Shown one piece after another: positions 2,892-53,086 of a DNA stretch of 64,000 nt (positions are counted from its first letter, which is position 1; each line of letters opens with the position of its first letter). The notes under the pieces were generated by a model that was given only the letters and a program-made list of their open reading frames with translations, did not search any database and was not told where the DNA came from. The stretch is from assembly GCA_016182235.1 (NCBI GenBank), contig JACOXT010000003.1, positions 2,209-66,208 of the forward strand, in the 5' to 3' direction. This DNA is from Candidatus Levyibacteriota bacterium (GTDB taxonomy: Bacteria > Patescibacteriota > Microgenomatia > Levybacterales > UBA12049). The position numbers and the translations under genes were made by a program.

Positions 2892-3623
2892 ATGGAGATT
2901 TTATTTTTTGTAGCAGCTTTTTTATCCGAAATTGTTGGGACAGTTGCTGGTTTTGGTTCTTCAACAATATTTTTGCCCCTCGCATTAATCTTTTTTGACT
3001 TTAAGACCGCGTTAGTCCTCGTAGCATTACTTCATATTTTCGGTAATATCGGAAGGATTAGCTTTTTTAGACATGGATTGGATAAGAAAACTCTTTTAGT
3101 TTTTGGCATTCCAAGTATTGTTATGACGCTCATAGGGGCATTGTTAGTGGCATATGTTCAACAAGATGTATTAAAAGGTATATTGGGAGTATTTTTAGTT
3201 ATCTATGCCGGGGTTTTCTTTTGGAAGGAAGACTTCAAAGTAAAGCCGACATTATTTAGTTCTATAACAGGCGGAGGATTATCTGGTTTTCTTGCTGGTC
3301 TTATAGGGACAGGTGGAGCTTTACGAGGAGCATTTTTGACAGGTTTTGGATTATCCAAAGAAAGATATATCGCAACAGCTGCCACTATAGCCTTGATGGT
3401 AGACATAACTAGAATTCCTGTTTACTTCGCGCAAGGCTTCTTGGAAAGTGAATATTACTGGTTTATTCCATTACTTTTAGTTATTGCTTTCTTGGGCTCA
3501 TTTACAGGAAAGCAGATAGTAAAACGTGTTCCTCAAAACAAGTTTAAAAAAATCGTTTTGTTGGCAATATTATTGATAGGCTTGAAGTTTATTTATGATT
3601 GGATCTGGGGGTTGATGTTATAA
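2892..3623 (+). CDS. TauE/SafE-family anion exporter-like membrane protein
   Basis: 243 aa, about 7-8 TM helices, with duplicated Gly-rich helices (VAGFGSSTIFLPLAL; GLIGTGGALRGAFL). Confidence 0.55.
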   Translation: MEILFFVAAFLSEIVGTVAGFGSSTIFLPLALIFFDFKTALVLVALLHIFGNIGRISFFRHGLDKKTLLVFGIPSIVMTLIGALLVAYVQQDVLKGILGVFLVIYAGVFFWKEDFKVKPTLFSSITGGGLSGFLAGLIGTGGALRGAFLTGFGLSKERYIATAATIALMVDITRIPVYFAQGFLESEYYWFIPLLLVIAFLGSFTGKQIVKRVPQNKFKKIVLLAILLIGLKFIYDWIWGLML

Positions 3624-4980: not shown

Positions 4981-5355
4981 ATGTTAAATTTTAATTCTAT
5001 AATGATAGGAACACATCAACCAAAGGTATTGGCTGATTTTTATGAAAAAGTTTTTGGCAAACCAGCTGATTGGAATGATGGAAGTTGGTATGGTTGGCAA
5101 GTGGGAAGTACTCATTTGACAATTGGCGAACATTCAGAAGTAAAAGGTAAAGCTAAAGAGCCACAAAGAATAATTCTAAATCTTGAGACGGAGGAAGTGA
5201 AAGGAGAATTTGATAGAATTAAAAAAGAGGCAAAAGCAAAAGTCATAAAAGAACCATACGAAATGCAGGGCGCGTGGATTGCAACTTTTGCCGATCCAGA
5301 CGGAAATTATTTTCAACTCATGTCCCCTTGGGAAAATGAAAGCCAAGCCAACTAA
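4981..5355 (+). CDS. VOC/glyoxalase-family protein
   Basis: 124 aa. The C-terminal FADPDGNYFQLM is typical of the glyoxalase/bleomycin-resistance fold. Confidence 0.6.
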   Translation: MLNFNSIMIGTHQPKVLADFYEKVFGKPADWNDGSWYGWQVGSTHLTIGEHSEVKGKAKEPQRIILNLETEEVKGEFDRIKKEAKAKVIKEPYEMQGAWIATFADPDGNYFQLMSPWENESQAN

Positions 5356-6046
5356 CATATTCTCCACCTTCAATAAGTTCCCCCACCTACTAATTGCTAT
5401 GTCTAAAAGAAAAGATGGGTCAATGAAGAACAGCTCTTTTAATAGACAAAAATTCTTAAGTCAGTTTAGAATTGACAATAAAGACACAGTAACAGCAGGT
5501 TTGGTGCATGGAAACAATATCAAACACGTCTCAAAATACGATCTGGGAAAATTTATTAAAAATACAGATTCTTTAATTACCAATGAAAAAGGAGTTTTTC
5601 TTACAATAACAACAGCAGATTGTTTACCAATATTATTATACGATCCGAAAAAAGAAGCAATTGGCTTAATTCATGCAGGATGGAGAGGGTTAGTGCTAAA
5701 TATTGTTGGTCATACAGTAAAACGCATGGGGAAAGATTTCGGAAGTAAAGCAAAAAATATAATTGCAGGAATCGGGCCGGGAATTAGCGTGTGCCATTTT
5801 GAGGTAAAAAAAGACATAGAAAAAAAATTTAAGAAATATCAGAAGGCAATAGAAAAAAGAAATGGCAAGATCCTTATTGATCTTAAAAAAATAGCTTTCT
5901 TACAATTACTGGAAGGAGGAGTAAAAAGAGAAAATATAGAAATAAACCCAGAGTGTACATTCCACAAAGAAATATACTTTTCCTTTAGAAGGGATAGAGT
6001 CTTGCCTCTAAAAGCCCAACTTGTGGTTATGGGATTGACTAAGTAA
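5336..6046 (+). CDS. pgeF: Purine nucleoside phosphorylase/laccase-domain protein YfiH/PgeF (DUF152)
   Basis: Motifs HGNNI, TADCLPILLYD and IHAGWRG are present. I chose the start at ATG 5336 so that the conserved N-terminal strand is included. The ORF-track start at 5279 overlaps the previous gene more. Confidence 0.65.
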   Translation: MKAKPTNIFSTFNKFPHLLIAMSKRKDGSMKNSSFNRQKFLSQFRIDNKDTVTAGLVHGNNIKHVSKYDLGKFIKNTDSLITNEKGVFLTITTADCLPILLYDPKKEAIGLIHAGWRGLVLNIVGHTVKRMGKDFGSKAKNIIAGIGPGISVCHFEVKKDIEKKFKKYQKAIEKRNGKILIDLKKIAFLQLLEGGVKRENIEINPECTFHKEIYFSFRRDRVLPLKAQLVVMGLTK

Positions 6047-24486: not shown

Positions 24487-24575
24487 AATTGCGAAGTGCG
24501 AATTATGAAATCCAAAGAACTTCCGTATACCTCATAGCTCATACTTCATAATTCATAATTCATAATTCATAATTC
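24487..24575. repeat. Heptamer arrays upstream of sipW (aattgcg aagtgcg aattatg ... catagct catactt cataatt x4)
   Basis: 24487-24507 and 24533-24575. The two halves are partly reverse-complementary (gaattatgaa versus ttcataattc). The last unit ends 7 nt before the ATG at 24582. Confidence 0.7.
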
Positions 24576-24581
24576 TTTTCT

Positions 24582-25916
24582 ATGCGTACGATATTCAAAT
24601 GGATAAATATCCTTCTTTCGGTTGGGATTTTTTTTGTAGCATTGGGAGTGCTCTATGTTGCCATTCCGTATTTTGGCAATCAGGCTTTAGTAGTCCGTTC
24701 GGGATCAATGAGTCCAGCAATTGACGCCGGTTCAATTGTTGTTGTCCGCGCGGGCCGGGATTTCATTTCCCCAATTGCTTCTGCTCCTATATACAACACA
24801 GGCGATATTATTGCTTTCCGCTCTGATAAAAATCAAAATACCATCATAACTCACAGAATTGTCGGTACCAAGGCAGAAGCATCCGGCGTTGTTTACAAGA
24901 CAAAAGGAGACGCGAACAAAGACGTTGATGGTTGGGTAGTCAAAGAAGAAAATGTTTTGGGAAAAGCTTCTTTTAATTTACCGCAGTTTGGATATGTTTT
25001 GGCTTTTGCGAGATCAAATTTAGGATTTCCGCTTCTTATTATAGTGCCAGCTTTATTTGTGATCTTGTTGGAGCTTTATAATATTACTAAGACTATAAGA
25101 GAGGCAACAAGTGTAAAAAAGATAAAAATTGTAAGAGAGATAAGAAGCCATCTGCATCATCCGCTTCACCTATCAGGAATTAAGACTTTTGTTCCGATTC
25201 TCTTGATTGGTTTGGCAATCCCAATCGCTTTCGCGTTTCCAAGCGATACGGAAACAAGTTCCAACAATGTCTTTACCGCCGCGGAGGATTTTTTTGTAGA
25301 TTCATCTACAACTCCAACCCCACCGCCTCCTCCGACCGCGTTTGGAATCGCGGATCATATCGTGATCAGCGAGGTACAGATTGCCACTTCCGGCGCAACC
25401 ACTAGTGATTTTGTTGAACTTTATAATCCTACATCTTCCAGTATCAATTTAAGTGGATTCCATTTAGTAAAACGCACATCAACAGGAACTTCTTCTGCAA
25501 ATCTGAAAGCATTTTCTTCCTCTGATATTATTCCAGCTCACGGTTTTTATTTGTGGGCTAGTACAGACGGAGGGTATGCCACGCAAATTGGGGCAGATGT
25601 AAGTACAGGAGAAAACATTACAAGCAATAACAGCGTTGCCCTTTTAGATTCTTCCGATGTAATAGTTGATGCTGTTGCTTGGGGAAGTGGCCATACAGCT
25701 CCTCTTATTGAGGGAAGCGCTTTTTCAATAAATCCTGGTGCAAATCAAAGCATGGAAAGAAAAGCATTGTCAACATCAACAGTTGCTACAATGGATATTG
25801 GAGGCGCGGATGAGTTTAAGGGAAACGGTTTTGACTTGGATGATAATTCAACAGATTTTATTCTAAGAACTCTTTCTCAGCCGCAGAATAGCGGAAGTTT
25901 GATAGAAATGCCCTAA
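24582..25916 (+). CDS. sipW: SipW-type (ER/archaeal-type S26B) signal peptidase I fused to a lamin-tail domain
   Basis: The peptidase boxes are VRSGSMSPAI, IITHRIV and KGDANKDVD, followed by a C-terminal TM helix. After that come a second TM helix, AFAFPSDTETSSNNVFTA (nt 25242-25259 = SDTETS) and a Pro/Thr linker. The LTD pattern is IVISEVQ...SDFVELYNPTSSSINLSGFHL...NNSVALLDSSDVIVDAVAWG. Confidence 0.8.
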   Translation: MRTIFKWINILLSVGIFFVALGVLYVAIPYFGNQALVVRSGSMSPAIDAGSIVVVRAGRDFISPIASAPIYNTGDIIAFRSDKNQNTIITHRIVGTKAEASGVVYKTKGDANKDVDGWVVKEENVLGKASFNLPQFGYVLAFARSNLGFPLLIIVPALFVILLELYNITKTIREATSVKKIKIVREIRSHLHHPLHLSGIKTFVPILLIGLAIPIAFAFPSDTETSSNNVFTAAEDFFVDSSTTPTPPPPPTAFGIADHIVISEVQIATSGATTSDFVELYNPTSSSINLSGFHLVKRTSTGTSSANLKAFSSSDIIPAHGFYLWASTDGGYATQIGADVSTGENITSNNSVALLDSSDVIVDAVAWGSGHTAPLIEGSAFSINPGANQSMERKALSTSTVATMDIGGADEFKGNGFDLDDNSTDFILRTLSQPQNSGSLIEMP

Positions 25917-25917
25917 T

Positions 25918-26272
25918 GTCATTCTGGGGAGTTCCGCTTAGCGGGACGACTCCAGAATCAGAGAAATATGAAGCAAATGTTTGTTTATATTATGGCAAAT
26001 CATAGGCCCACTCTATATACAGGCGTGACAAACAATCTGATCAAGAGAGTTTGGCAGCATAAGCAAGAATTGATTGAGGGTTTTACGAAAAAATACCATT
26101 TACATAAGCTTGTTTATTACGAAACTGTAGAAGGAGAATTACAAGCGATTGTTAGAGAAAAACAAATAAAGGATATGAATAGACAAAGCAAACTGAAAAT
26201 GATTTGGAAGTTCAATCCAGACACGCATGATTTATATGAATCAATTTCGGATTCTGGACAAGCCAGAATGAC
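25918..26272 (+). mobile_element. GIY-YIG gene cassette bounded by 10-bp terminal inverted repeats and terminal hairpins
   Basis: gtcattctgg at 25918-25927 and ccagaatgac at 26263-26272 are exact reverse complements. Each end folds on ATTCTGG/CCAGAAT stems (25921-25958 and 26251-26269). A 77-bp derivative lies at 42536-42612. Confidence 0.7.
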
Positions 26273-26276
26273 ATAG
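25968..26276 (+). CDS. GIY-YIG nuclease family protein
   Basis: FVYIMANHRPTLYTGVTNNLIKRVWQHK.....GFTKKY.LHKLVYYE.......AI.REKQIK is the GIY-YIG/UPF0213-type signature. The last 4 codons lie in the right TIR. Confidence 0.8.
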   Translation: MKQMFVYIMANHRPTLYTGVTNNLIKRVWQHKQELIEGFTKKYHLHKLVYYETVEGELQAIVREKQIKDMNRQSKLKMIWKFNPDTHDLYESISDSGQARMT

Positions 26277-26284
26277 GGAAAAAT

Positions 26285-27112
26285 ATGAAAAAGTTAGTCA
26301 GAATTTTAGTTTTGCTTCTTGTCATAGGTTTACTACTTAGGTTTTCAGGCGTGGAGCTTTTTAGGCCTTCGACAGTTCGCGCTGTTGGAAATTTGGTTGT
26401 TGATTTTCATGTTCCGGAAGGGGATCCTATTTTTACTGTTAACGACTTCAAGCCCTGCGACGTTGAAGAACGTACGGTTGATATTACGAATAATTACGAC
26501 GAGCCTAAGCAAATTAGCATTATTGGAGTAAATACAGAAGAAACAGGAGAAATAGCAAATGTTATCCAGTTTGCAATCTCAAACGGCAGCGCCGATATTT
26601 ACGGCGGGGCAACGGGCACAAAAACCCTAAAAGATTTTTTTGAAGACTCTGAGGATCCTTCGGGAGTTGTTTTGGCAATCCTAGATCAAAATCAGTCTCA
26701 AAATTTTTTCTTTACAGCTACTTTTGAGTGCGATAGCGGAAATGAATTTCAGGAGAAAAAAGTGGTCTTTGATCTTAGAATTGGTGTTTTAGTTGACTTT
26801 GGAGAATGTCCTGATGTTGAAGGGACTATAAAGGTATATTATCCTGAAGGTTGGCACGCGATTGTCGGGATGGACGAAAATCAGTATGGGGCAGACAAGG
26901 TATTTGATATAGGAGGAAATAATTTTGTTCAGTGTTATTTCCCGCCATCTGGCAACGAAGGAATCCAGACAAATTGGCTGGCAGCCGCGGATTTTATAGA
27001 GTCGCAAATTAGTGAGTTTATTGCCGATGGATGGACTTTTATCACCAATGGATTCGACTGGGGTTTGCCAATTCAAGAATATCTCGCCAAAAACTTCCTC
27101 TTTACGTTCTAA
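26285..27112 (+). CDS. Exported protein, probable third TasA/camelysin-fold paralogue with extra C-terminal domain
   Basis: It has a signal anchor, FTVNDFKPCDVEERTVDITNN, and GNEFQEKKVVFDLRIG, which resembles the camelysin/TasA C-terminal strand motif. The assignment is weaker than for the other two paralogues. Confidence 0.45.
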   Translation: MKKLVRILVLLLVIGLLLRFSGVELFRPSTVRAVGNLVVDFHVPEGDPIFTVNDFKPCDVEERTVDITNNYDEPKQISIIGVNTEETGEIANVIQFAISNGSADIYGGATGTKTLKDFFEDSEDPSGVVLAILDQNQSQNFFFTATFECDSGNEFQEKKVVFDLRIGVLVDFGECPDVEGTIKVYYPEGWHAIVGMDENQYGADKVFDIGGNNFVQCYFPPSGNEGIQTNWLAAADFIESQISEFIADGWTFITNGFDWGLPIQEYLAKNFLFTF

Positions 27113-28700: not shown

Positions 28701-28794
28701 AATTTGAAATTTTCAATTTTTAATGAATTTTTAATATTTAAAATTTAAATTTTCATTTCAAATTTCGAATTTTAAATTGAAAATTATAGTTTAC
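28701..28794. repeat. AT-rich heptamer-periodic array filling the whole intergenic space
   Basis: aatttga aattttc aattttt aatgaat ttttaat atttaaa atttaaa ttttcat ttcaaat ttcgaat tttaaat tgaaaat. It is related to the arrays at 46500-46548 and 53007-53086. Confidence 0.7.
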
Positions 28795-41020: not shown

Positions 41021-42007
41021 TTATCTAATGGAGTTTTTCATCTTCAGTAAGAACCAGCGGAGCTTGTCGACTATTTTATAAATTTCGTAGAAAAAGGGAT
41101 CGATGACAAGATCATAACTTCCGACAAACTCAACGAGTTCTCCTCCGTAGCCTTGTTTAAATCTATGAAATCCATACCACGGATCTTTAGGATCGGGATT
41201 TGGGCCAAGTGCGCCCCACATATCTAATTTTTTAAGTCCTAATTTTTTTCCAAAACGAATTGTTTCCCACATCATTAGGTTTGACGCCATTGTTTCGCGG
41301 TGTTCAGTGCTAGATGCGCCATAAGGATAGTAAAGAGTATCTTTGTAGACGAATACTATCCAGGCGACTAGAGTTTTTCCTTGATAGTTTGCAAGTAATA
41401 AATGTGAGGATAGTTGATTTATGATTAATGATTTATGATTAATGATTTTATGGGGAAAGGAGCTCCAGTGCAGCCTATGGTAGTTTTCGGTGTGGGCATA
41501 AAAACCCTGTCTTTTGGTTGTTTCTTGAGTAAGTTTGAGATAAGTTTCAAAAGCCTCATCAGAATTATCTTCGACAACTATAACTTTATGTTTTTGGGCA
41601 ACTTTTATATTGTAACGAGTCTTGGGGTGCATGTTTTTGAGTAATTCATCTTCTGATTTTGTCAGATCGAGGACGAAAGTATACTTGGTGAATAATGGAT
41701 GAAAAGAATTGCGAATTGCGAATTGCGAATTAAGTTCATAGTTCTGAGTTCTTTGGACATTTGGTTCAAGCTGGATGAAAATACATTTTTCTATTTTTCC
41801 AATCTCTTTAAGCTTGGAGAGCATTTCTTTAGTTGGCAATGGCCCTTTTGGTATATACCCAATAGTAAAAGGAGTATGAGGAATTTTATGGATAGTTATT
41901 AGTAAGTCATTTTCTCTTATTACTTTAACGCCTGTTTTTTTGCGAAACTCACCCCATTCTACAGACTGGAGAGGATGCACGGAAAGGTTGTTTGTATTCA
42001 TAACCAT
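41021..42007 (-). CDS. FemAB-family peptidoglycan bridge-formation aminoacyltransferase
   Basis: HPLQSVEWGEFRKKTG and GFHRFKQGYGG are present. It contains two heptamer-repeat segments (41414-41448 and 41707-41755). Confidence 0.7.
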   Translation of the reverse strand: MVMNTNNLSVHPLQSVEWGEFRKKTGVKVIRENDLLITIHKIPHTPFTIGYIPKGPLPTKEMLSKLKEIGKIEKCIFIQLEPNVQRTQNYELNSQFAIRNSFHPLFTKYTFVLDLTKSEDELLKNMHPKTRYNIKVAQKHKVIVVEDNSDEAFETYLKLTQETTKRQGFYAHTENYHRLHWSSFPHKIINHKSLIINQLSSHLLLANYQGKTLVAWIVFVYKDTLYYPYGASSTEHRETMASNLMMWETIRFGKKLGLKKLDMWGALGPNPDPKDPWYGFHRFKQGYGGELVEFVGSYDLVIDPFFYEIYKIVDKLRWFLLKMKNSIR

Positions 42008-43908
42008 TCTGATATTTTGCCTTCTGTCCTATTAAATGGTTTGAGATTTTGGCTTAAGACATTTTCTGGAAGCTCTAACAAAAAGCGAGAAACCGTATTG
42101 GATATTTTTTGGCCAAAAAATAGTCTTCTTGTGGCGTATGTTAAGAAAAGTTTTTGTTTGGCGCGAGTCATGCCAACATAACAAAGCCTTCTTTCTTCCT
42201 CGAGTTCATTTTTATCCATAAGAGATCTTGAGTGCGGAAAAAGTCCTTCTTCCATGCCAATCATAAATACATACGAGAATTCAAGCCCTTTTGCCGCATG
42301 AAGAGTCATTAAAGTTACAGCATTTTTTTTAAGCTCGCCGTTGGGTTTATCTGGCATATATTCCTGCTCAACTAATGAGACATTTTCCAAAAACTTCGTA
42401 AGATCGGAAAAATTAAGAGCAACGGAGCGAAGCTCTTTTATATTCTCAAGCCTTTGCCTCTCTTCCTCATCCTTTTCGTCATACATGGTAAGATAATCAG
42501 TTTCTTTTATCACTCTGTCCAAAAGTTCTAAAGTCGTCATTCTGGCTTGCCCAGAAGCTCCAATCGTTTTAAGAGATTCTGGATGCACTCGTTTCTCGCT
42601 TACCAGAATGACGCCTTGTTGAAATTCAAGAAATTTTTGTAGACGTCTTTTTCCCAATTTCTCAATCCTTTTTAAAGAAATTTTGTCTTTTTTGTTACTT
42701 AAGACTCTGAGAAACGCGAGTATATCTTTGATCTCTTTTCTTTCATAAAATCTTGTCCCGCCAATAAGAACATAAGGAATGCTATTATGCAGGAGGATTT
42801 CCTCTAAAACCCTTGATTGAGCATTGGTTCTATATAGTATTGAGATATCGGAGAGATTTAAATTATGATTAAGATTTAAGATTTGGTTTATAATATATTC
42901 GACTTCATCCTGCTCATTTCTTGCCTCATAAATTTCTACATCCTCGCCATGAGAATTCTCTGTCCAAAGTTTTAAGACCGGATGAGTTGTATTTTTGGAT
43001 ATCACTGAGGAGGCAGCATCTAGAATGTTTTGTGTTGAGCGATAATTTTGAGAAAGAGAAAATGTTTTTGTATTTTTGAAGTCGTCTTTAAATTTATTGA
43101 GATTGGTAAAATCTGCGCCGCGCCAGGAATAAATGCTTTGAGAAAAATCTCCAACGACACAGATATTATTCCATTTTTTTGCCAATAATTTTGTCAAAGC
43201 ATATTGCGCATGGTTAGTGTCTTGGTACTCATCGATAAGAATATATCTAAATTTGTTTTGGTATTTATCCAATACTTCACTGTATTTTTCAAAAAGATAG
43301 ACTGTTTTTAGCAGCAAATCATCAAAGTCAAGCGCGTGATTTTCCGCTAAAATTTTTTGATAGACTGGATAGACTTTGGCGACTTTTTCTTGAAAGTTAC
43401 CTCTGGCAAAACTTAAATACATAGAATCCGTTATAAGTTCGTTTTTCGCTTGCGATATGCTGACCAGGATAGATGATGGCTTGTAATCTTTTGTAGAGAT
43501 GTTGAGTATTTTCATAGCTTCTTTTATTGCGTCTAACTGATCTTGGGTATCGTATATCGTAAAATCCGAAGATATGCCAATATATTTACCATCAATCCTT
43601 AGTATTTTTGCGCAAAGAGAATGAAAAGTGGATATAGTTGGCTGTTGACTATTGGTTGTTAGTCGTTGGCTGTTGACTAGATATTTTTGGACGCGTTCTT
43701 TCATTTCCGAAGCCGCTTTATTCGTAAATGTGACCATAAGAATATTAAAAGGGTCTATATGTTTCTCTAAAATTAGATACATAACTTTGTATGTAAGAAC
43801 CCTTGTTTTGCCGGAACCTGCGCCAGCTAAAATTATATTTGGTCCCTCTGTTTGCAAAACCGCAAGTTTCTGCTCGGAATTTAAGTCCTTGAAGATATCT
43901 TTGTTCAT
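41998..43908 (-). CDS. pcrA: ATP-dependent DNA helicase PcrA/UvrD family
   Basis: LNSEQKLAV....GPNIILAGAGSGKTRVLT, TFTNKAA.EMKERV, TFHS, LIDEYQDTN, QNYRS and LMTLHAAKGLEF...VGMTRA are present. I prefer the start MNKDIF (43908) over the track start at 43944. Confidence 0.85.
   Translation of the reverse strand: MNKDIFKDLNSEQKLAVLQTEGPNIILAGAGSGKTRVLTYKVMYLILEKHIDPFNILMVTFTNKAASEMKERVQKYLVNSQRLTTNSQQPTISTFHSLCAKILRIDGKYIGISSDFTIYDTQDQLDAIKEAMKILNISTKDYKPSSILVSISQAKNELITDSMYLSFARGNFQEKVAKVYPVYQKILAENHALDFDDLLLKTVYLFEKYSEVLDKYQNKFRYILIDEYQDTNHAQYALTKLLAKKWNNICVVGDFSQSIYSWRGADFTNLNKFKDDFKNTKTFSLSQNYRSTQNILDAASSVISKNTTHPVLKLWTENSHGEDVEIYEARNEQDEVEYIINQILNLNHNLNLSDISILYRTNAQSRVLEEILLHNSIPYVLIGGTRFYERKEIKDILAFLRVLSNKKDKISLKRIEKLGKRRLQKFLEFQQGVILVSEKRVHPESLKTIGASGQARMTTLELLDRVIKETDYLTMYDEKDEEERQRLENIKELRSVALNFSDLTKFLENVSLVEQEYMPDKPNGELKKNAVTLMTLHAAKGLEFSYVFMIGMEEGLFPHSRSLMDKNELEEERRLCYVGMTRAKQKLFLTYATRRLFFGQKISNTVSRFLLELPENVLSQNLKPFNRTEGKISEWL
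42536..42612 (-). mobile_element. 77-bp gene-less derivative (MITE-like) of the GIY-YIG cassette, in frame within pcrA
   Basis: It has the same 10-bp TIRs (gtcattctgg 42536-42545, ccagaatgac 42603-42612) and the same internal ccagaatc / ttctggRcaagccagaat hairpin arms as 25918-26272. It is read through as VILVSEKRVHPESLKTIGASGQARMT. Confidence 0.7.
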
Positions 43909-43990
43909 AAGTATAATGAATGAGTCGTTTTGTAATTGTACCACATGATCTTTCGACTTTGCTCAGGATCATACTGAGGCAGTCGAACGT

Positions 43991-45765: not shown

Positions 45766-48039
45766 TTAGTTGATTTTATAGATTTTTGTTTGATCACTTG
45801 AATAGACTATCTGCCCAAGTTTACTAAATTTTTCTTCAGAAAGAGTATATTTTTGTTTTTCTAGATCACCCACAAAAACTAAAGAAATCTTATATTTATC
45901 AATCAGTTTTTTTGCGATTTGCGAATCAACTGTTTCATAGAGAGTTTGAACTTCTTCGATTCTTGGCGATGGAATATCATAAGTTCCTCGCCAAAGCCAT
46001 TCATGGACGGACCATCCTAAAACTGTCGGAAGTCCAGTGTTTGTGGATACTCTGCCATAATCCGTATAAGAGTCACCTTGAGCTTCGAGAATTACGGGCT
46101 GTCCTTTGATATTTTTGTTTATCCATAAAATTGCTTCATAATCAGTTGGATACAGCGATTTAAGATATTTTGTTCCGTCAAGTCCGTGATAGGTTTTTAA
46201 ATCTCCAAAATAAGAATTGATTGCAAAGTAAGGATACACAAATACCAGAAATAATCCAATACTACCAATAACCCAATAAACAAATTTCCAATGAATAAAT
46301 TTACGATTTACGAATAGACGAATGATAGTATAACCAGAGGATAAAGAAAGCATAATAAAGGCTTGGTATACGAGTTTAAACATGGTATTTGCCCGGTAAT
46401 GTGCAGGGTAAATGTCCTTTACGTATATGAATTCTGGAATGATAATAAGAAGAGTGGAGAAAAATATGAGGACTGAAATGAATAAGCCAGATGGGCTTAA
46501 ATTTTCAATTTTGAATTTGAAATTTTTAATGAAATTTAAACAATTAAAACTCTTAAGTTTTTGAATTTTATTTTTGAAATTGAAACGAAGGAGTATAAAT
46601 ACAATCGCCCAAAAGTAAAAAAATCCATAAAGAATAAATAACTGCCAAATGGGCGAACGCTGACAATGATCTTTTTCGAAAAGAAAAGGACCAAGTCTTT
46701 CGATTTTTGTTAAGAATTCAGGTGCGCATAAAATGCCGATTCCGGAAGCAAAGGGCTTGAAGTTTAGATTAAATGGAAGAGAGAATAGAAAGAAACCAAA
46801 AACCAAAAACAAAATACTTAATACATAATATTTAATGCGCTTTGGATTTGAAGAATTGGTTGTGGATCTTAATTGAACAGTAAAGATTACAATTGCAGTA
46901 AGTAAAAGATAAATAAGTCCGTCCCATGCATTGGTCATGTACATGATTGCTAGAATGAATCCTAGCAATAAAATCCTAAATCCAAAATTAGAAATTCTAA
47001 ATAAATTCAAATAACCAAAACTATAATTATCAAAACGTTTTGAGCTTTGAAAATTTGAGCTTATTTGTGATTTGTGATTTGTGATTTGTGATTTTAAAAC
47101 TAGTGATAAAAGTATTGTTATGGTAAGTAGAACAAAAGGTATATCAAGTACGTGTCCATGTAAATCAGATACAACAAAGGAATATATTGGGAATTCATGA
47201 ATAGTATTTTCAATAAAACGAGTAGCATTAGGGTACCAGTAAGAATTTGGGAATTTATCTAGGGAGAATATTAATTGCCAGAATGGTACCGGCGATTCGT
47301 TTTCATAGGGCTTAAAAAAAGTGTAGACAGAGTGGAGATTGCCAGCAAAGGTAATTAGAAGCGCAGATAATAGACCTCCAATGAAAACTCTAAATCCGAG
47401 TTTCGATTTTAATAAAAATATTAAATTAGCTCCGATTGAAAATGCGCCTGCGAATGTAAATCCCGATATTGCAGCAAGCATAAGATTATATGTAATATTT
47501 GGTGGAAGGCTGGATAACTTAGTTAATACTGCTGTTGTCAAATGTCCAAAATAGTAGTAATTAATATATAGAGGCGTTAGCCACATGTCGGAAGGAGGGA
47601 AATACTCACTTCGCAGGATTGAATTTATAAAGCCAAAGTCCATATATTTTTCAAGACCATGAATATCGGGTCCATGGGCGTGAATATAAGACCAAAATAT
47701 TAGAACTGACAAAAAGATAATTTCTTCAAAGACAAATATCCTGAAAAAATACCCTAAAGATTTTATGAGATTAGAATATTTGAATACTAGGAAAATGTTT
47801 AAGATTAAGAATCCAACAATGGTTAATAAAATAGTAAGTACAGTAAAAGGTTGGATTCTCAAGATGCCTAAGATGAAAATTACATAACTGAGAAGGGCAA
47901 TACCTATTATTTTTGAAAATATATATCCCCTATCGGAGAGTGAATGAAATATTATACCTGTTAAGGGGAGAAAAATAATGCCAATAATAAAAATAATTAA
48001 CCACCATTGAAATATGTACAGCAAATCGGAAAAAGGCAT
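45766..48039 (-). CDS. DUF2298 / 'YYY' GT-C-like polytopic membrane protein
   Basis: GLEKYMDFGFINSILRSEYFPPSDMWL...INYYYFGH is the DUF2298 signature as I remember it. 757 aa. It carries three heptamer-repeat segments. Confidence 0.65.
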   Translation of the reverse strand: MPFSDLLYIFQWWLIIFIIGIIFLPLTGIIFHSLSDRGYIFSKIIGIALLSYVIFILGILRIQPFTVLTILLTIVGFLILNIFLVFKYSNLIKSLGYFFRIFVFEEIIFLSVLIFWSYIHAHGPDIHGLEKYMDFGFINSILRSEYFPPSDMWLTPLYINYYYFGHLTTAVLTKLSSLPPNITYNLMLAAISGFTFAGAFSIGANLIFLLKSKLGFRVFIGGLLSALLITFAGNLHSVYTFFKPYENESPVPFWQLIFSLDKFPNSYWYPNATRFIENTIHEFPIYSFVVSDLHGHVLDIPFVLLTITILLSLVLKSQITNHKSQISSNFQSSKRFDNYSFGYLNLFRISNFGFRILLLGFILAIMYMTNAWDGLIYLLLTAIVIFTVQLRSTTNSSNPKRIKYYVLSILFLVFGFFLFSLPFNLNFKPFASGIGILCAPEFLTKIERLGPFLFEKDHCQRSPIWQLFILYGFFYFWAIVFILLRFNFKNKIQKLKSFNCLNFIKNFKFKIENLSPSGLFISVLIFFSTLLIIIPEFIYVKDIYPAHYRANTMFKLVYQAFIMLSLSSGYTIIRLFVNRKFIHWKFVYWVIGSIGLFLVFVYPYFAINSYFGDLKTYHGLDGTKYLKSLYPTDYEAILWINKNIKGQPVILEAQGDSYTDYGRVSTNTGLPTVLGWSVHEWLWRGTYDIPSPRIEEVQTLYETVDSQIAKKLIDKYKISLVFVGDLEKQKYTLSEEKFSKLGQIVYSSDQTKIYKIN

Positions 48040-53006: not shown

Positions 53007-53086
53007 TAATTTATAATTTTAAATTTACAATTTTCATTGAATTTTCAATTACTTAATTTTCAAATTTCAAATTGAAATTTTTTAGA
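53007..53086. repeat. AT-rich heptamer-periodic array with 17-nt perfect palindrome
   Basis: It fills the gap between two GT-C genes. aatttcaaattgaaatt at 53063-53079 is a perfect palindrome. The tttcaaatttc..aaattgaaa core is shared with 28755-28785. Confidence 0.65.

Follow-up and report, generated by a model that had tools for sequence, protein, structure and literature searches.

In-frame insertion of a gene-less hairpin element, probably of a family with an Ssn-type full-length form, in a PcrA/UvrD-family helicase gene of a Levybacteriota bacterium

The DNA analysed here is a stretch of 64,000 nucleotides from a Candidatus Levyibacteriota bacterium (assembly GCA_016182235.1, contig JACOXT010000003.1, positions 2,209 to 66,208), called the window in the following. 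Within the gene of a PcrA/UvrD-family helicase it carries a gene-less element of 77 nt (42536..42612, minus strand) made up of two inverted hairpins. We propose that this mini-element belongs to a hairpin-ended family whose full-length form is of the Ssn type, i.e. encodes a small GIY-YIG protein between the two hairpins, and that it is translated within a loop of the helicase; we put the probability of this reading at about 0.8. Homology to the Ssn family and in-frame insertion of the kind known from the Rickettsia palindromic elements (RPEs) have precedents, and the hairpins are a variant form. The single locus is a clean example; the pattern at the level of the family is more interesting and would make the mobility of Ssn-type elements directly testable.

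Read on the minus strand from 42612 to 42536 the mini-element has the sequence GTCATTCTGG-taagcgagaaacgagtgcat-CCAGAATC-tcttaaaacgattggagc-TTCTGGgcaagCCAGAATGAC. The left hairpin (42575..42612) is formed by GTCATTCTGG, a 20-nt loop and CCAGAATC and shows the orientation of the Ssn motif on the coding strand. It is followed by a spacer of 18 nt (42557..42574), whose place is held by the ssnA-like gene in the full-length unit, and by the right hairpin (42536..42556; TTCTGG gcaag CCAGAATGAC), which resembles the Ssn-related motifs (SRMs) and by analogy would have its cleavable orientation on the plus strand. Copies of the element found in metagenomes (see below; all copy counts in this text are those among the matches listed) are preceded by C or T in 101/115 cases and followed by G or A in 110/115. 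Judged by sequence, the inverted repeat most likely extends by one base per side, giving a full extent of 42535-42613. When folded as single-stranded DNA (ssDNA) the segment (81 nt) reaches -18.1 kcal/mol as compared with -8.2 +/- 1.9 for shuffled sequences (z = -5.2). Because of this folding energy and of the at least 120 exact matches in metagenomes, the likeness between the mini-element and the full-length unit is not a matter of chance. The exact sequence GTCATTCTGG occurs at four sites of the window, which form two inverted pairs, one belonging to the mini-element and the other to the full-length unit. A scan of the window for the generic hairpin architecture revealed no further family members, and there is only one GIY-YIG gene.

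The full-length unit of 355 bp (25918..26272, plus strand) is located at a distance of 16 kb and has the order left hairpin, ssnA-like gene, right hairpin. It has the same 10-nt ends as the mini-element, the same inner CCAGAATC and the right-end hairpin GATTCTGGacaagCCAGAATGAC. The original prediction had held that the terminal inverted repeats, the inner CCAGAATC arm and the right-end hairpin are common to the two elements, and these parts are indeed identical in sequence. The left hairpin of the full-length unit (25918..25959) consists of GTCATTCTGG and CCAGAATC with a loop of 24 nt between them, in which an inner hairpin (CCGC-tta-GCGG) is located; the right hairpin (26250..26272) reads GATTCTGG acaag CCAGAATGAC. 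Between them the ssnA-like gene (25968..26276, plus strand) encodes a predicted single-domain GIY-YIG nuclease of 102 aa. The last codons of the gene run through the right hairpin (…DSGQARMT*), and the open reading frame (ORF) ends with SGQARMT, so that the GQARMT tail is, as predicted, common to the nuclease and to the insert in the helicase. The unit starts 1 nt past the stop codon of the ORF 24582..25916, ends 12 nt short of the ATG at 26285 and fills the intergenic gap (25914-26287) completely.

The Ssn family (cd10448 in CDD) comprises GIY-YIG proteins of about 94 aa which bind a hairpin repeat on ssDNA (Chenal et al. 2025, PMC11893778), with site-specific cleavage of ssDNA beside the hairpin and none of dsDNA or RNA as a defining trait. 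SsnA nicks ssDNA just upstream of the hairpin, on one strand only and in an orientation-specific manner; its repeat in Neisseria, called NTS, has the sequence CGTCATTCCCGCG-MAV-GCGGGAATCYRG and has been generalised to the SRMs, which lie on both flanks of 42% of the ssnA homologues (PMC11893778). CPR bacteria (candidate phyla radiation) go unmentioned in that paper (PMC11893778). In the 102-aa protein of the window, Pfam recognises GIY-YIG (PF01541) over residues 4-75 and no second domain, and no NCBIfam model matches the protein. A tblastn search with it in 7.3 Gb matched, at E = 5e-15, two chromosomes of N. gonorrhoeae, which the collection lists as plasmids. The corresponding gonococcal ORF of 94 aa is 46% identical over 92 residues, end to end (pairwise E = 2e-24), and is located amid nine canonical NTS repeats within 3.3 kb. 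On account of its length and this NTS context we regard the gonococcal ORF as the orthologue of SsnA; it is distinct from the protein of N. meningitidis. Measured against this ORF the window protein lies within the homology threshold of the paper (E < 1e-10 to Neisseria SsnA); by homology it is thus a member of the Ssn family with a predicted nuclease activity. This assignment of the cassette goes beyond the original prediction.

The hairpins of the window follow the layout of the NTS, with (C/T)GTCATT, stem, loop, stem and AATC, and the gene is bracketed on both sides by inverted hairpins with a GTCATT-type 5′ flank not only in the window but also in the metagenomic loci L174 and L196. The stems, ATTCTGG/CCAGAAT, are unlike those of the NTS, and the loop of the left hairpin is long. 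Run as a regular expression, the published degenerate SRM motif (HGTCWYN(0-2)YYVSBRHN(0-5)WNVSBRGN(0-2)RNCYNB) recognised a canonical NTS as well as nine sites of the Neisseria locus; in the window it had no match, neither among the four hairpins (0/4) nor elsewhere. A strict SRM identity of the window hairpins is ruled out by this mismatch, and we therefore file them as an SRM-like variant.

The host gene of the mini-element (41998..43944, minus strand) is an intact ORF of 648 aa; the publicly annotated protein (P0001), assigned to Candidatus Levybacteria within the CPR/Patescibacteria, starts 12 codons downstream and has 636 aa. Pfam finds the UvrD-helicase domains PF00580 (4e-89) in the N-terminal and PF13361 (1e-68) in the C-terminal part, and the ORF matches the PcrA protein 1pjr with E = 4e-163. 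The best NCBIfam model is pcrA (TIGR01073) with 724 bits as compared with an equivalog cutoff of 911, and we therefore assign the protein at the family level to PcrA/UvrD and not as a certified PcrA equivalog. HMMER splits the alignment with 1pjr into query residues 13-435 (PcrA 4-422) and 469-631 (PcrA 478-647), with the insert falling into the gap. As had been claimed from the sequence, the mini-element together with one base makes 26 codons without closing the helicase ORF; they encode residues 445-470 of the 648 aa, with the peptide VILVSEKRVHPESLKTIGASGQARMT.

In an AlphaFold model of P0001, calculated with an alignment of 58 sequences and having a mean confidence (pLDDT) of 75, the insert (P0001 residues 433-458) is mostly coil with a pLDDT of 46-65, bordered by the helices 420-432 and 459-469, both with a pLDDT of about 93. 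According to the model the insert is located in a short variable linker between two helices, and by homology to Rep, PcrA and UvrD this region corresponds to the accessory domain 2B; the expected surface-loop position is thus borne out as a low-confidence coil between two confident helices. Domain 2B is regulatory and in Rep dispensable for catalysis. All columns that are invariant across the 58 aligned helicases are conserved in P0001, by construction, and nothing in the open frame of the host gene suggests a pseudogene. Since the gene is open and all invariant helicase residues are kept, the mini-element is most likely translated as a surface loop of 26 residues, as far as can be judged from the model.

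For a comparison with the orthologues we used the 120 closest homologues of the helicase from Levybacteria, i.e. the query and 119 others with 67-76% identity, among which the synteny TIM-helicase-FemAB is conserved. The expectation that the insert would be absent elsewhere holds for 108/119 of the others, which have a short alignable native linker and no insert; the remaining 11/119 carry in the same loop variants of the type 'VIL…(A/T)RMT' with 21-44 residues and varied internal sequence. The same 26 residues were not found in genomes free of the repeat. All element-type inserts of the set are located in this single loop, and with the query included 12/12 have the same orientation. In a neighbour-joining tree calculated with the loop masked, the insert-bearing tips are found at about nine separate places, each near insert-free relatives; near pairs of a filled and an empty allele are P0002 and P0092 (distance about 9%) and the query and P0009 (about 20%).

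The native linker has about 12 residues (e.g. SF-N/D-KN-xxLST), of which the filled alleles keep only 4-10. With about eight native linker residues lost the event was not a pure insertion, a point that the original prediction did not contain. The junctions vary by lineage: on the left, 2 to 6 residues are kept behind a conserved F, and on the right 1 or 4 are kept ahead of a conserved I/L-D/E. Loss of the element cannot give rise to the conserved linker of the empty alleles, and therefore the filled state, as read from the alignment, is derived; it arose more than once or moved between alleles. The hairpin DNA of the query is identical to that of P0002 at a protein identity of about 73% and with diverged flanking codons. 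Some copies show decay, the right hairpin arm of P0016 being eroded and the element of P0120 having acquired substitutions. In P0120 (L245) the stem changed in a compensatory manner from TTCTGG/CCAGAA to TCCTGG/CCAGGA, and between P0002 (L001) and P0010 (L248) one C-G pair is replaced by T-A in the inner hairpin of the left-hairpin loop. These compensatory substitutions suggest that the pairing of the hairpins is maintained.

The same alignment contains further insertions. In P0010 (L248, about 3112-3211) the element encloses an unrelated palindrome, ctccctcaccctaaccctctccc-taa-gggagagggagggggtgaggg with the peptide PHPNPLPKGEGGGEG, which takes the place of the left arm of the right hairpin. 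P0013 and P0023 have other short inserts in the same linker (DLPRRKAGLNHF and DLPAGQVGLNQF), which look like a translated palindromic repeat of another kind. A 19-aa insert found in P0016 only (IRRSPNQMSPIRQAQGDPE, near alignment residue 358) and an 8-aa insert common to 11 orthologues (PS[AT]SLR[AT]G-like, near residue 529) do not match the element family. We also considered that the helicase site could be targeted because the codons downstream of it, GAT ATT CTG GAT in P0092, mimic the stem of the element; we rejected this, since stem-like words are not enriched over the background in the 40-nt flanks of 109 copies.

The metagenome scan used a pattern with 34 specified bases which covers the whole pair of left hairpin, spacer and right hairpin. 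It returned at least 120 loci; the copies in them, 61-92 nt long, number at least 115 when each distinct one is counted once (L124-L243). If a copy is called genic when its open frame has a length of at least 150 aa and remains open for at least 40 aa to either side of it, 53/115 (about 46%) are genic, in at least 43 host clusters; hosts that could be named by Pfam are UvrA, RecJ, TatD, GT2, a CobQ-type amidotransferase and a FAD amine oxidase. Three reading frames are used, giving peptides of the form VILG…PES…DSGQARMT, HSG…SRI…FWTSQND and SFWG…. Where long open runs on one strand flank the copy on both sides, frame-preserving stop-free copies outnumber frame-breaking ones 43:2, which speaks for translation of the intragenic copies and against their removal. 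According to the original prediction the helicase is a protein that has taken up a mobile palindromic element, and this view is supported by this ratio, by the 108/119 orthologues lacking the insert and by the location in a loop.

Several loci bear on how the mini-elements arose. L174 contains a complete unit of left hairpin, ssnA and right hairpin, followed after 13 nt by a mini-element whose left-hairpin loop differs by a single base; downstream of this mini-element the 13-nt spacer recurs, together with a further left hairpin. At L196 three mini-elements surround an ssnA gene. From the near-identical loops of the adjoining units in L174 we conclude that mini-elements are internal-deletion derivatives. 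At the junctions of 108/115 copies, direct repeats of at least 2 nt, i.e. target-site duplications, are not seen. The helicase copy had been described as a derivative of the GIY-YIG cassette resembling a MITE (a transposable element of the miniature inverted-repeat type). The shared ends and the tandem of L174 are in favour of this description, which in the absence of target-site duplications applies in a loose sense only.

Repeated use of one loop is not confined to the helicase. In orthologous hosts of the GATase_3 family the same loop is occupied in frames 0, 2 and 1, and in the amine oxidases in frames 0 and 2. The gene directly downstream of the helicase, FemAB, carries in-frame mini-elements (frame 2, same loop) in L001 (12176-12256) and L245 (3536-3595); the insert is absent from L002 and from the FemAB of the window (41021-42007). 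Repeated hits in certain loops are therefore a general property of the family and no peculiarity of the helicase. An intergenic copy in another genome (L029) and the helicase copy have loops of one subfamily (TAAGCGA…GTGCAT).

A separate scan of a genome collection (596 Gb) was done with the loose pattern GTCATTCTGGN{3,30}CCAGAA, for which most matches are probably chance or unrelated; seven CPR matches were useful. In two of these the match is read in frame: a junction of a right and a left hairpin lies within the gene of an arginyl-tRNA synthetase, and a right hairpin by itself within a GT2 gene. At the former site (L053, about 5320-5370) the two hairpins abut directly (…CCAGAATGAC|GTCATTCTGG…), a layout that would be expected for the junction of two units or for a circle junction. 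In another host, the RecJ-like ORF of L175, the peptide VIPVKTGIQS is found at the place where the RecJ of L172 has an HSG…SQND mini-element; presumably this peptide is a translated classical NTS-like hairpin. The same ORF of L175 also has a mini-element at another site.

Genic copies are strongly biased in their orientation, with 50/53 pointing in the same direction as the host gene (p = 6e-12). The intergenic copies, when compared with their neighbouring genes, show 25 same and 16 opposite orientations (p = 0.21), and the GC skew of the window is uninformative in this respect; replication or neighbourhood is therefore not supported as the cause of the bias. Nor do stop codons explain it, since the numbers of stop-free frames are about equal in the forward (52, 21, 67) and the reverse direction (48, 33, 65). 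Taken together, the unbiased intergenic copies and the equal numbers of stop-free frames indicate that the bias is specific to transcribed and translated contexts. As a hypothesis we suggest that the right hairpin with its short loop is the better Ssn substrate and that exposure of its cleavable strand as the non-template strand is harmful.

A mechanism can be sketched by homology to the Neisseria SsnA (PMC11893778). The resident nuclease would bind each hairpin with its GTCATT flank in ssDNA and would nick a few bases outside the hairpins, at the left hairpin on one strand and at the right hairpin on the opposite strand. Nicking might then drive copying or movement of the element, either through single-stranded DNA or through repair and with no target duplication left behind, and selection would retain those copies which are located in tolerant loops, in frame and in the direction of the gene. 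We put forward only tentatively, as a serious possibility, that hairpin-ssnA-hairpin units and mini-elements are mobile in CPR bacteria and have inserted repeatedly into the same few loops, such as the 2B linker of the helicase and those of FemAB, GATase_3 and the amine oxidase, by a hitherto unrecognised Ssn-dependent ssDNA route, thereby writing segments of 20-30 residues into housekeeping proteins. If so, the orientation bias of the genic copies could reflect an interplay of transcription and strand-specific Ssn cleavage.

Other histories of the helicase copy have to be weighed. It could be a fossil of a single ancient insertion into the helicase of ancestral Levybacteria that was inherited vertically and lost many times, and the common loop and orientation of 12/12 inserts as well as the decay of P0016 and P0120 would fit. 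We consider this quite improbable, since deletion cannot regenerate the conserved native linker of the empty orthologues and the scattered distribution would require at least nine separate losses; the junction positions vary among the lineages, and the hairpin DNA of the query and P0002 remained identical despite the divergence of the surrounding codons. A related proposal, one or few insertions followed by spread of the filled helicase allele between Levybacteria by homologous recombination, appears to us rather unlikely. It would explain the uniform orientation and the five alleles of one junction class, and it agrees with the loop subfamily (VILVSE…PESL…) and junctions shared by the query and the distant P0120 and with the related left-hairpin loops of P0002 and P0010, which belong to different clades. 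There are, however, at least four junction classes, with very different loop sequences and lengths; transfer of alleles could not produce the frame patterns seen in GATase_3 (0, 2, 1) and the amine oxidases (0, 2), and the same pattern of filled and empty sites recurs in FemAB.

A different kind of explanation would be that the hairpin pair within the gene is retained for a benefit, serving either as an Ssn target that limits gene replacement by incoming ssDNA or modulates recombination, in the way suggested for the NTS repeats that surround Neisseria genes, or as a loop that tunes the regulatory domain 2B. In Neisseria NTS-gene-NTS configurations do reduce transformation (PMC11893778), and the compensatory stem changes in P0120 and in the inner hairpin of P0002/P0010 as well as the orientation bias confined to genic copies (50:3 as compared with 25:16) could be understood in this way. 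Yet about 90% of the orthologues do without the insert, some copies are decaying, the host genes are very diverse, compensatory changes can also be brought about by intrastrand repair within palindromes, and natural transformability of CPR bacteria is not evident in this data set, so that we hold usefulness for unlikely. Finally, the 26 residues might be missing from the helicase because the segment is taken out ahead of protein synthesis, be it through splicing as in an intron, excision from the DNA or bypass during translation. Intervening sequences are removed from the transcripts of CPR rRNA genes (PMC11270868) and the segment has a strong hairpin structure; removal would, however, lift the constraint on frame and stop codons, at odds with the 43:2 ratio and with the reading of the elements in all three frames across hosts. 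In sequence the elements resemble neither an intron nor an intein, no RNA-family search having been run on the segment, and we consider removal very improbable.

Our reading of the mini-element as a translated, gene-less member of a hairpin-ended family with an Ssn-type full-length form, and still more its extension to mobility, must be set against several points that count against it. We know of no strand-transfer activity of GIY-YIG nucleases. The window itself contains just one mini-element and one full-length unit, and its hairpins escape the published degenerate motif. For the helicase copy we infer translation from the statistics of the family. The uniform orientation of the 12 helicase inserts also fits a single origin with spread by recombination, and among the genomes compared no near-identical pair of a filled and an empty genome was found, the closest having about 91% protein identity. 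The authors of the Ssn paper remarked on the insertion-sequence look of SRM-ssnA-SRM and gave mobility as a hypothesis only (PMC11893778).

Two other kinds of repeats in the window are unrelated to the hairpin family. AT-rich AATTTTCAATTTTGAATTTGAAATTTTT-like repeats, in direct and inverted order, are found at 28701-28786, 46497-46549 and 53008-53082, and a short TTCATAA tandem (24531-24575) is located just upstream of the ORF starting at 24582.

The Ssn family was described only in 2025, and the mobility of hairpin-gene-hairpin units was left there as a hypothesis. To this question the present family contributes comparative evidence: derivatives beside their parents, filled and empty orthologous sites, and one loop occupied in different frames. 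In CPR bacteria such hairpins are often built into proteins, including enzymes of repair and translation, and they offer a concrete system in which to study the spread of a nuclease-only element and the making of new protein segments by selfish palindromes in very small genomes. For annotation it follows that VILG…PES…DSGQARMT or HSG…SRI…FWTSQND peptides in CPR proteins should be regarded as derived from the element and not as features of the protein family. If Ssn-dependent mobility holds true, this would be the first comparative evidence for transposition of Ssn/SRM units, and short inserts in the rRNA genes of CPR bacteria might find an explanation. GIY-YIG-encoding inserts in these genes are not introns, and many short (<200 bp) inserts without ORF are uncharacterised (PMC11270868); the hairpin/ssnA family described here might include them.

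Among the known systems the Ssn/SRM system is the one whose protein is shared, a single-domain GIY-YIG protein of about 100 aa that is 46% identical to the protein of the N. gonorrhoeae ssnA locus. The gene likewise lies between inverted hairpins of the order (C)GTCATT-stem-loop-stem-AATC, and in both systems the repeats also occur without gene and in arrays. Differences concern the stems (ATTCTGG/CCAGAAT here, GC-rich CCCGCG there), the left-hairpin loop of 14-24 nt, the CPR host and the unmatched degenerate motif. About 46% of the sampled mini-elements are genic and in frame, whereas 2% of the NTS are intragenic in N. meningitidis (PMC11893778). The orthologous sites with and without insert described here, and likewise the deletion derivatives, are unreported in that paper (PMC11893778). 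In the intergenic mosaic elements of Neisseria, inverted hairpin pairs of the dRS3/NTS type likewise surround a short spacer, and at the Neisseria locus (L244) forward-reverse NTS pairs about 105 bp apart are found beside ssnA. These mosaic elements are intergenic, whereas the CPR mini-elements are frequently translated inside genes. The arrays of L174 and L196 resemble such mosaic arrays or those of the repetitive extragenic palindromes (REPs) and bacterial interspersed mosaic elements (BIMEs).

With the REP/BIME-RAYT and IS200/IS605 systems the family has in common hairpin ends recognised in ssDNA and the lack of target-site duplications; in both, hairpin derivatives devoid of the gene are more numerous than the gene itself, and inverted hairpins form arrays. 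Their enzyme is, however, a Y1 (HUH) transposase with strand transfer, while here it is a GIY-YIG protein. No Y1 transposase lies between the hairpins of the window, where the gene encodes a GIY-YIG protein, the window as a whole not having been searched systematically for Y1. REPs are moreover extragenic by definition, and the elements described here are often intragenic. Like MITEs the mini-elements are small, have terminal inverted repeats and no coding capacity of their own, share the ends of a gene-bearing parent (10-11 nt identical between the 77-nt and the 355-bp unit) and occur in many copies. In contrast to MITEs they lack target-site duplications (108/115), and the parent encodes a nuclease and not a DDE transposase.

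A prior description of such elements in protein genes of CPR bacteria was not found in the open-access literature. The closest parallel for the insertion into proteins is provided by the RPEs (Ogata et al. 2000), which have a length of about 100-150 bp; a review of them (PMC10969869) names no associated enzyme. By description they too are short palindromes inserted in frame into unrelated housekeeping genes, compatible with the fold and translated, and intergenic copies exist as well. The elements found here are shorter (61-92 nt) and have ends in common with a nuclease-encoding unit. Since Rickettsia is listed among the genera rich in SRMs (PMC11893778), a link between the RPEs and the family described here is possible.

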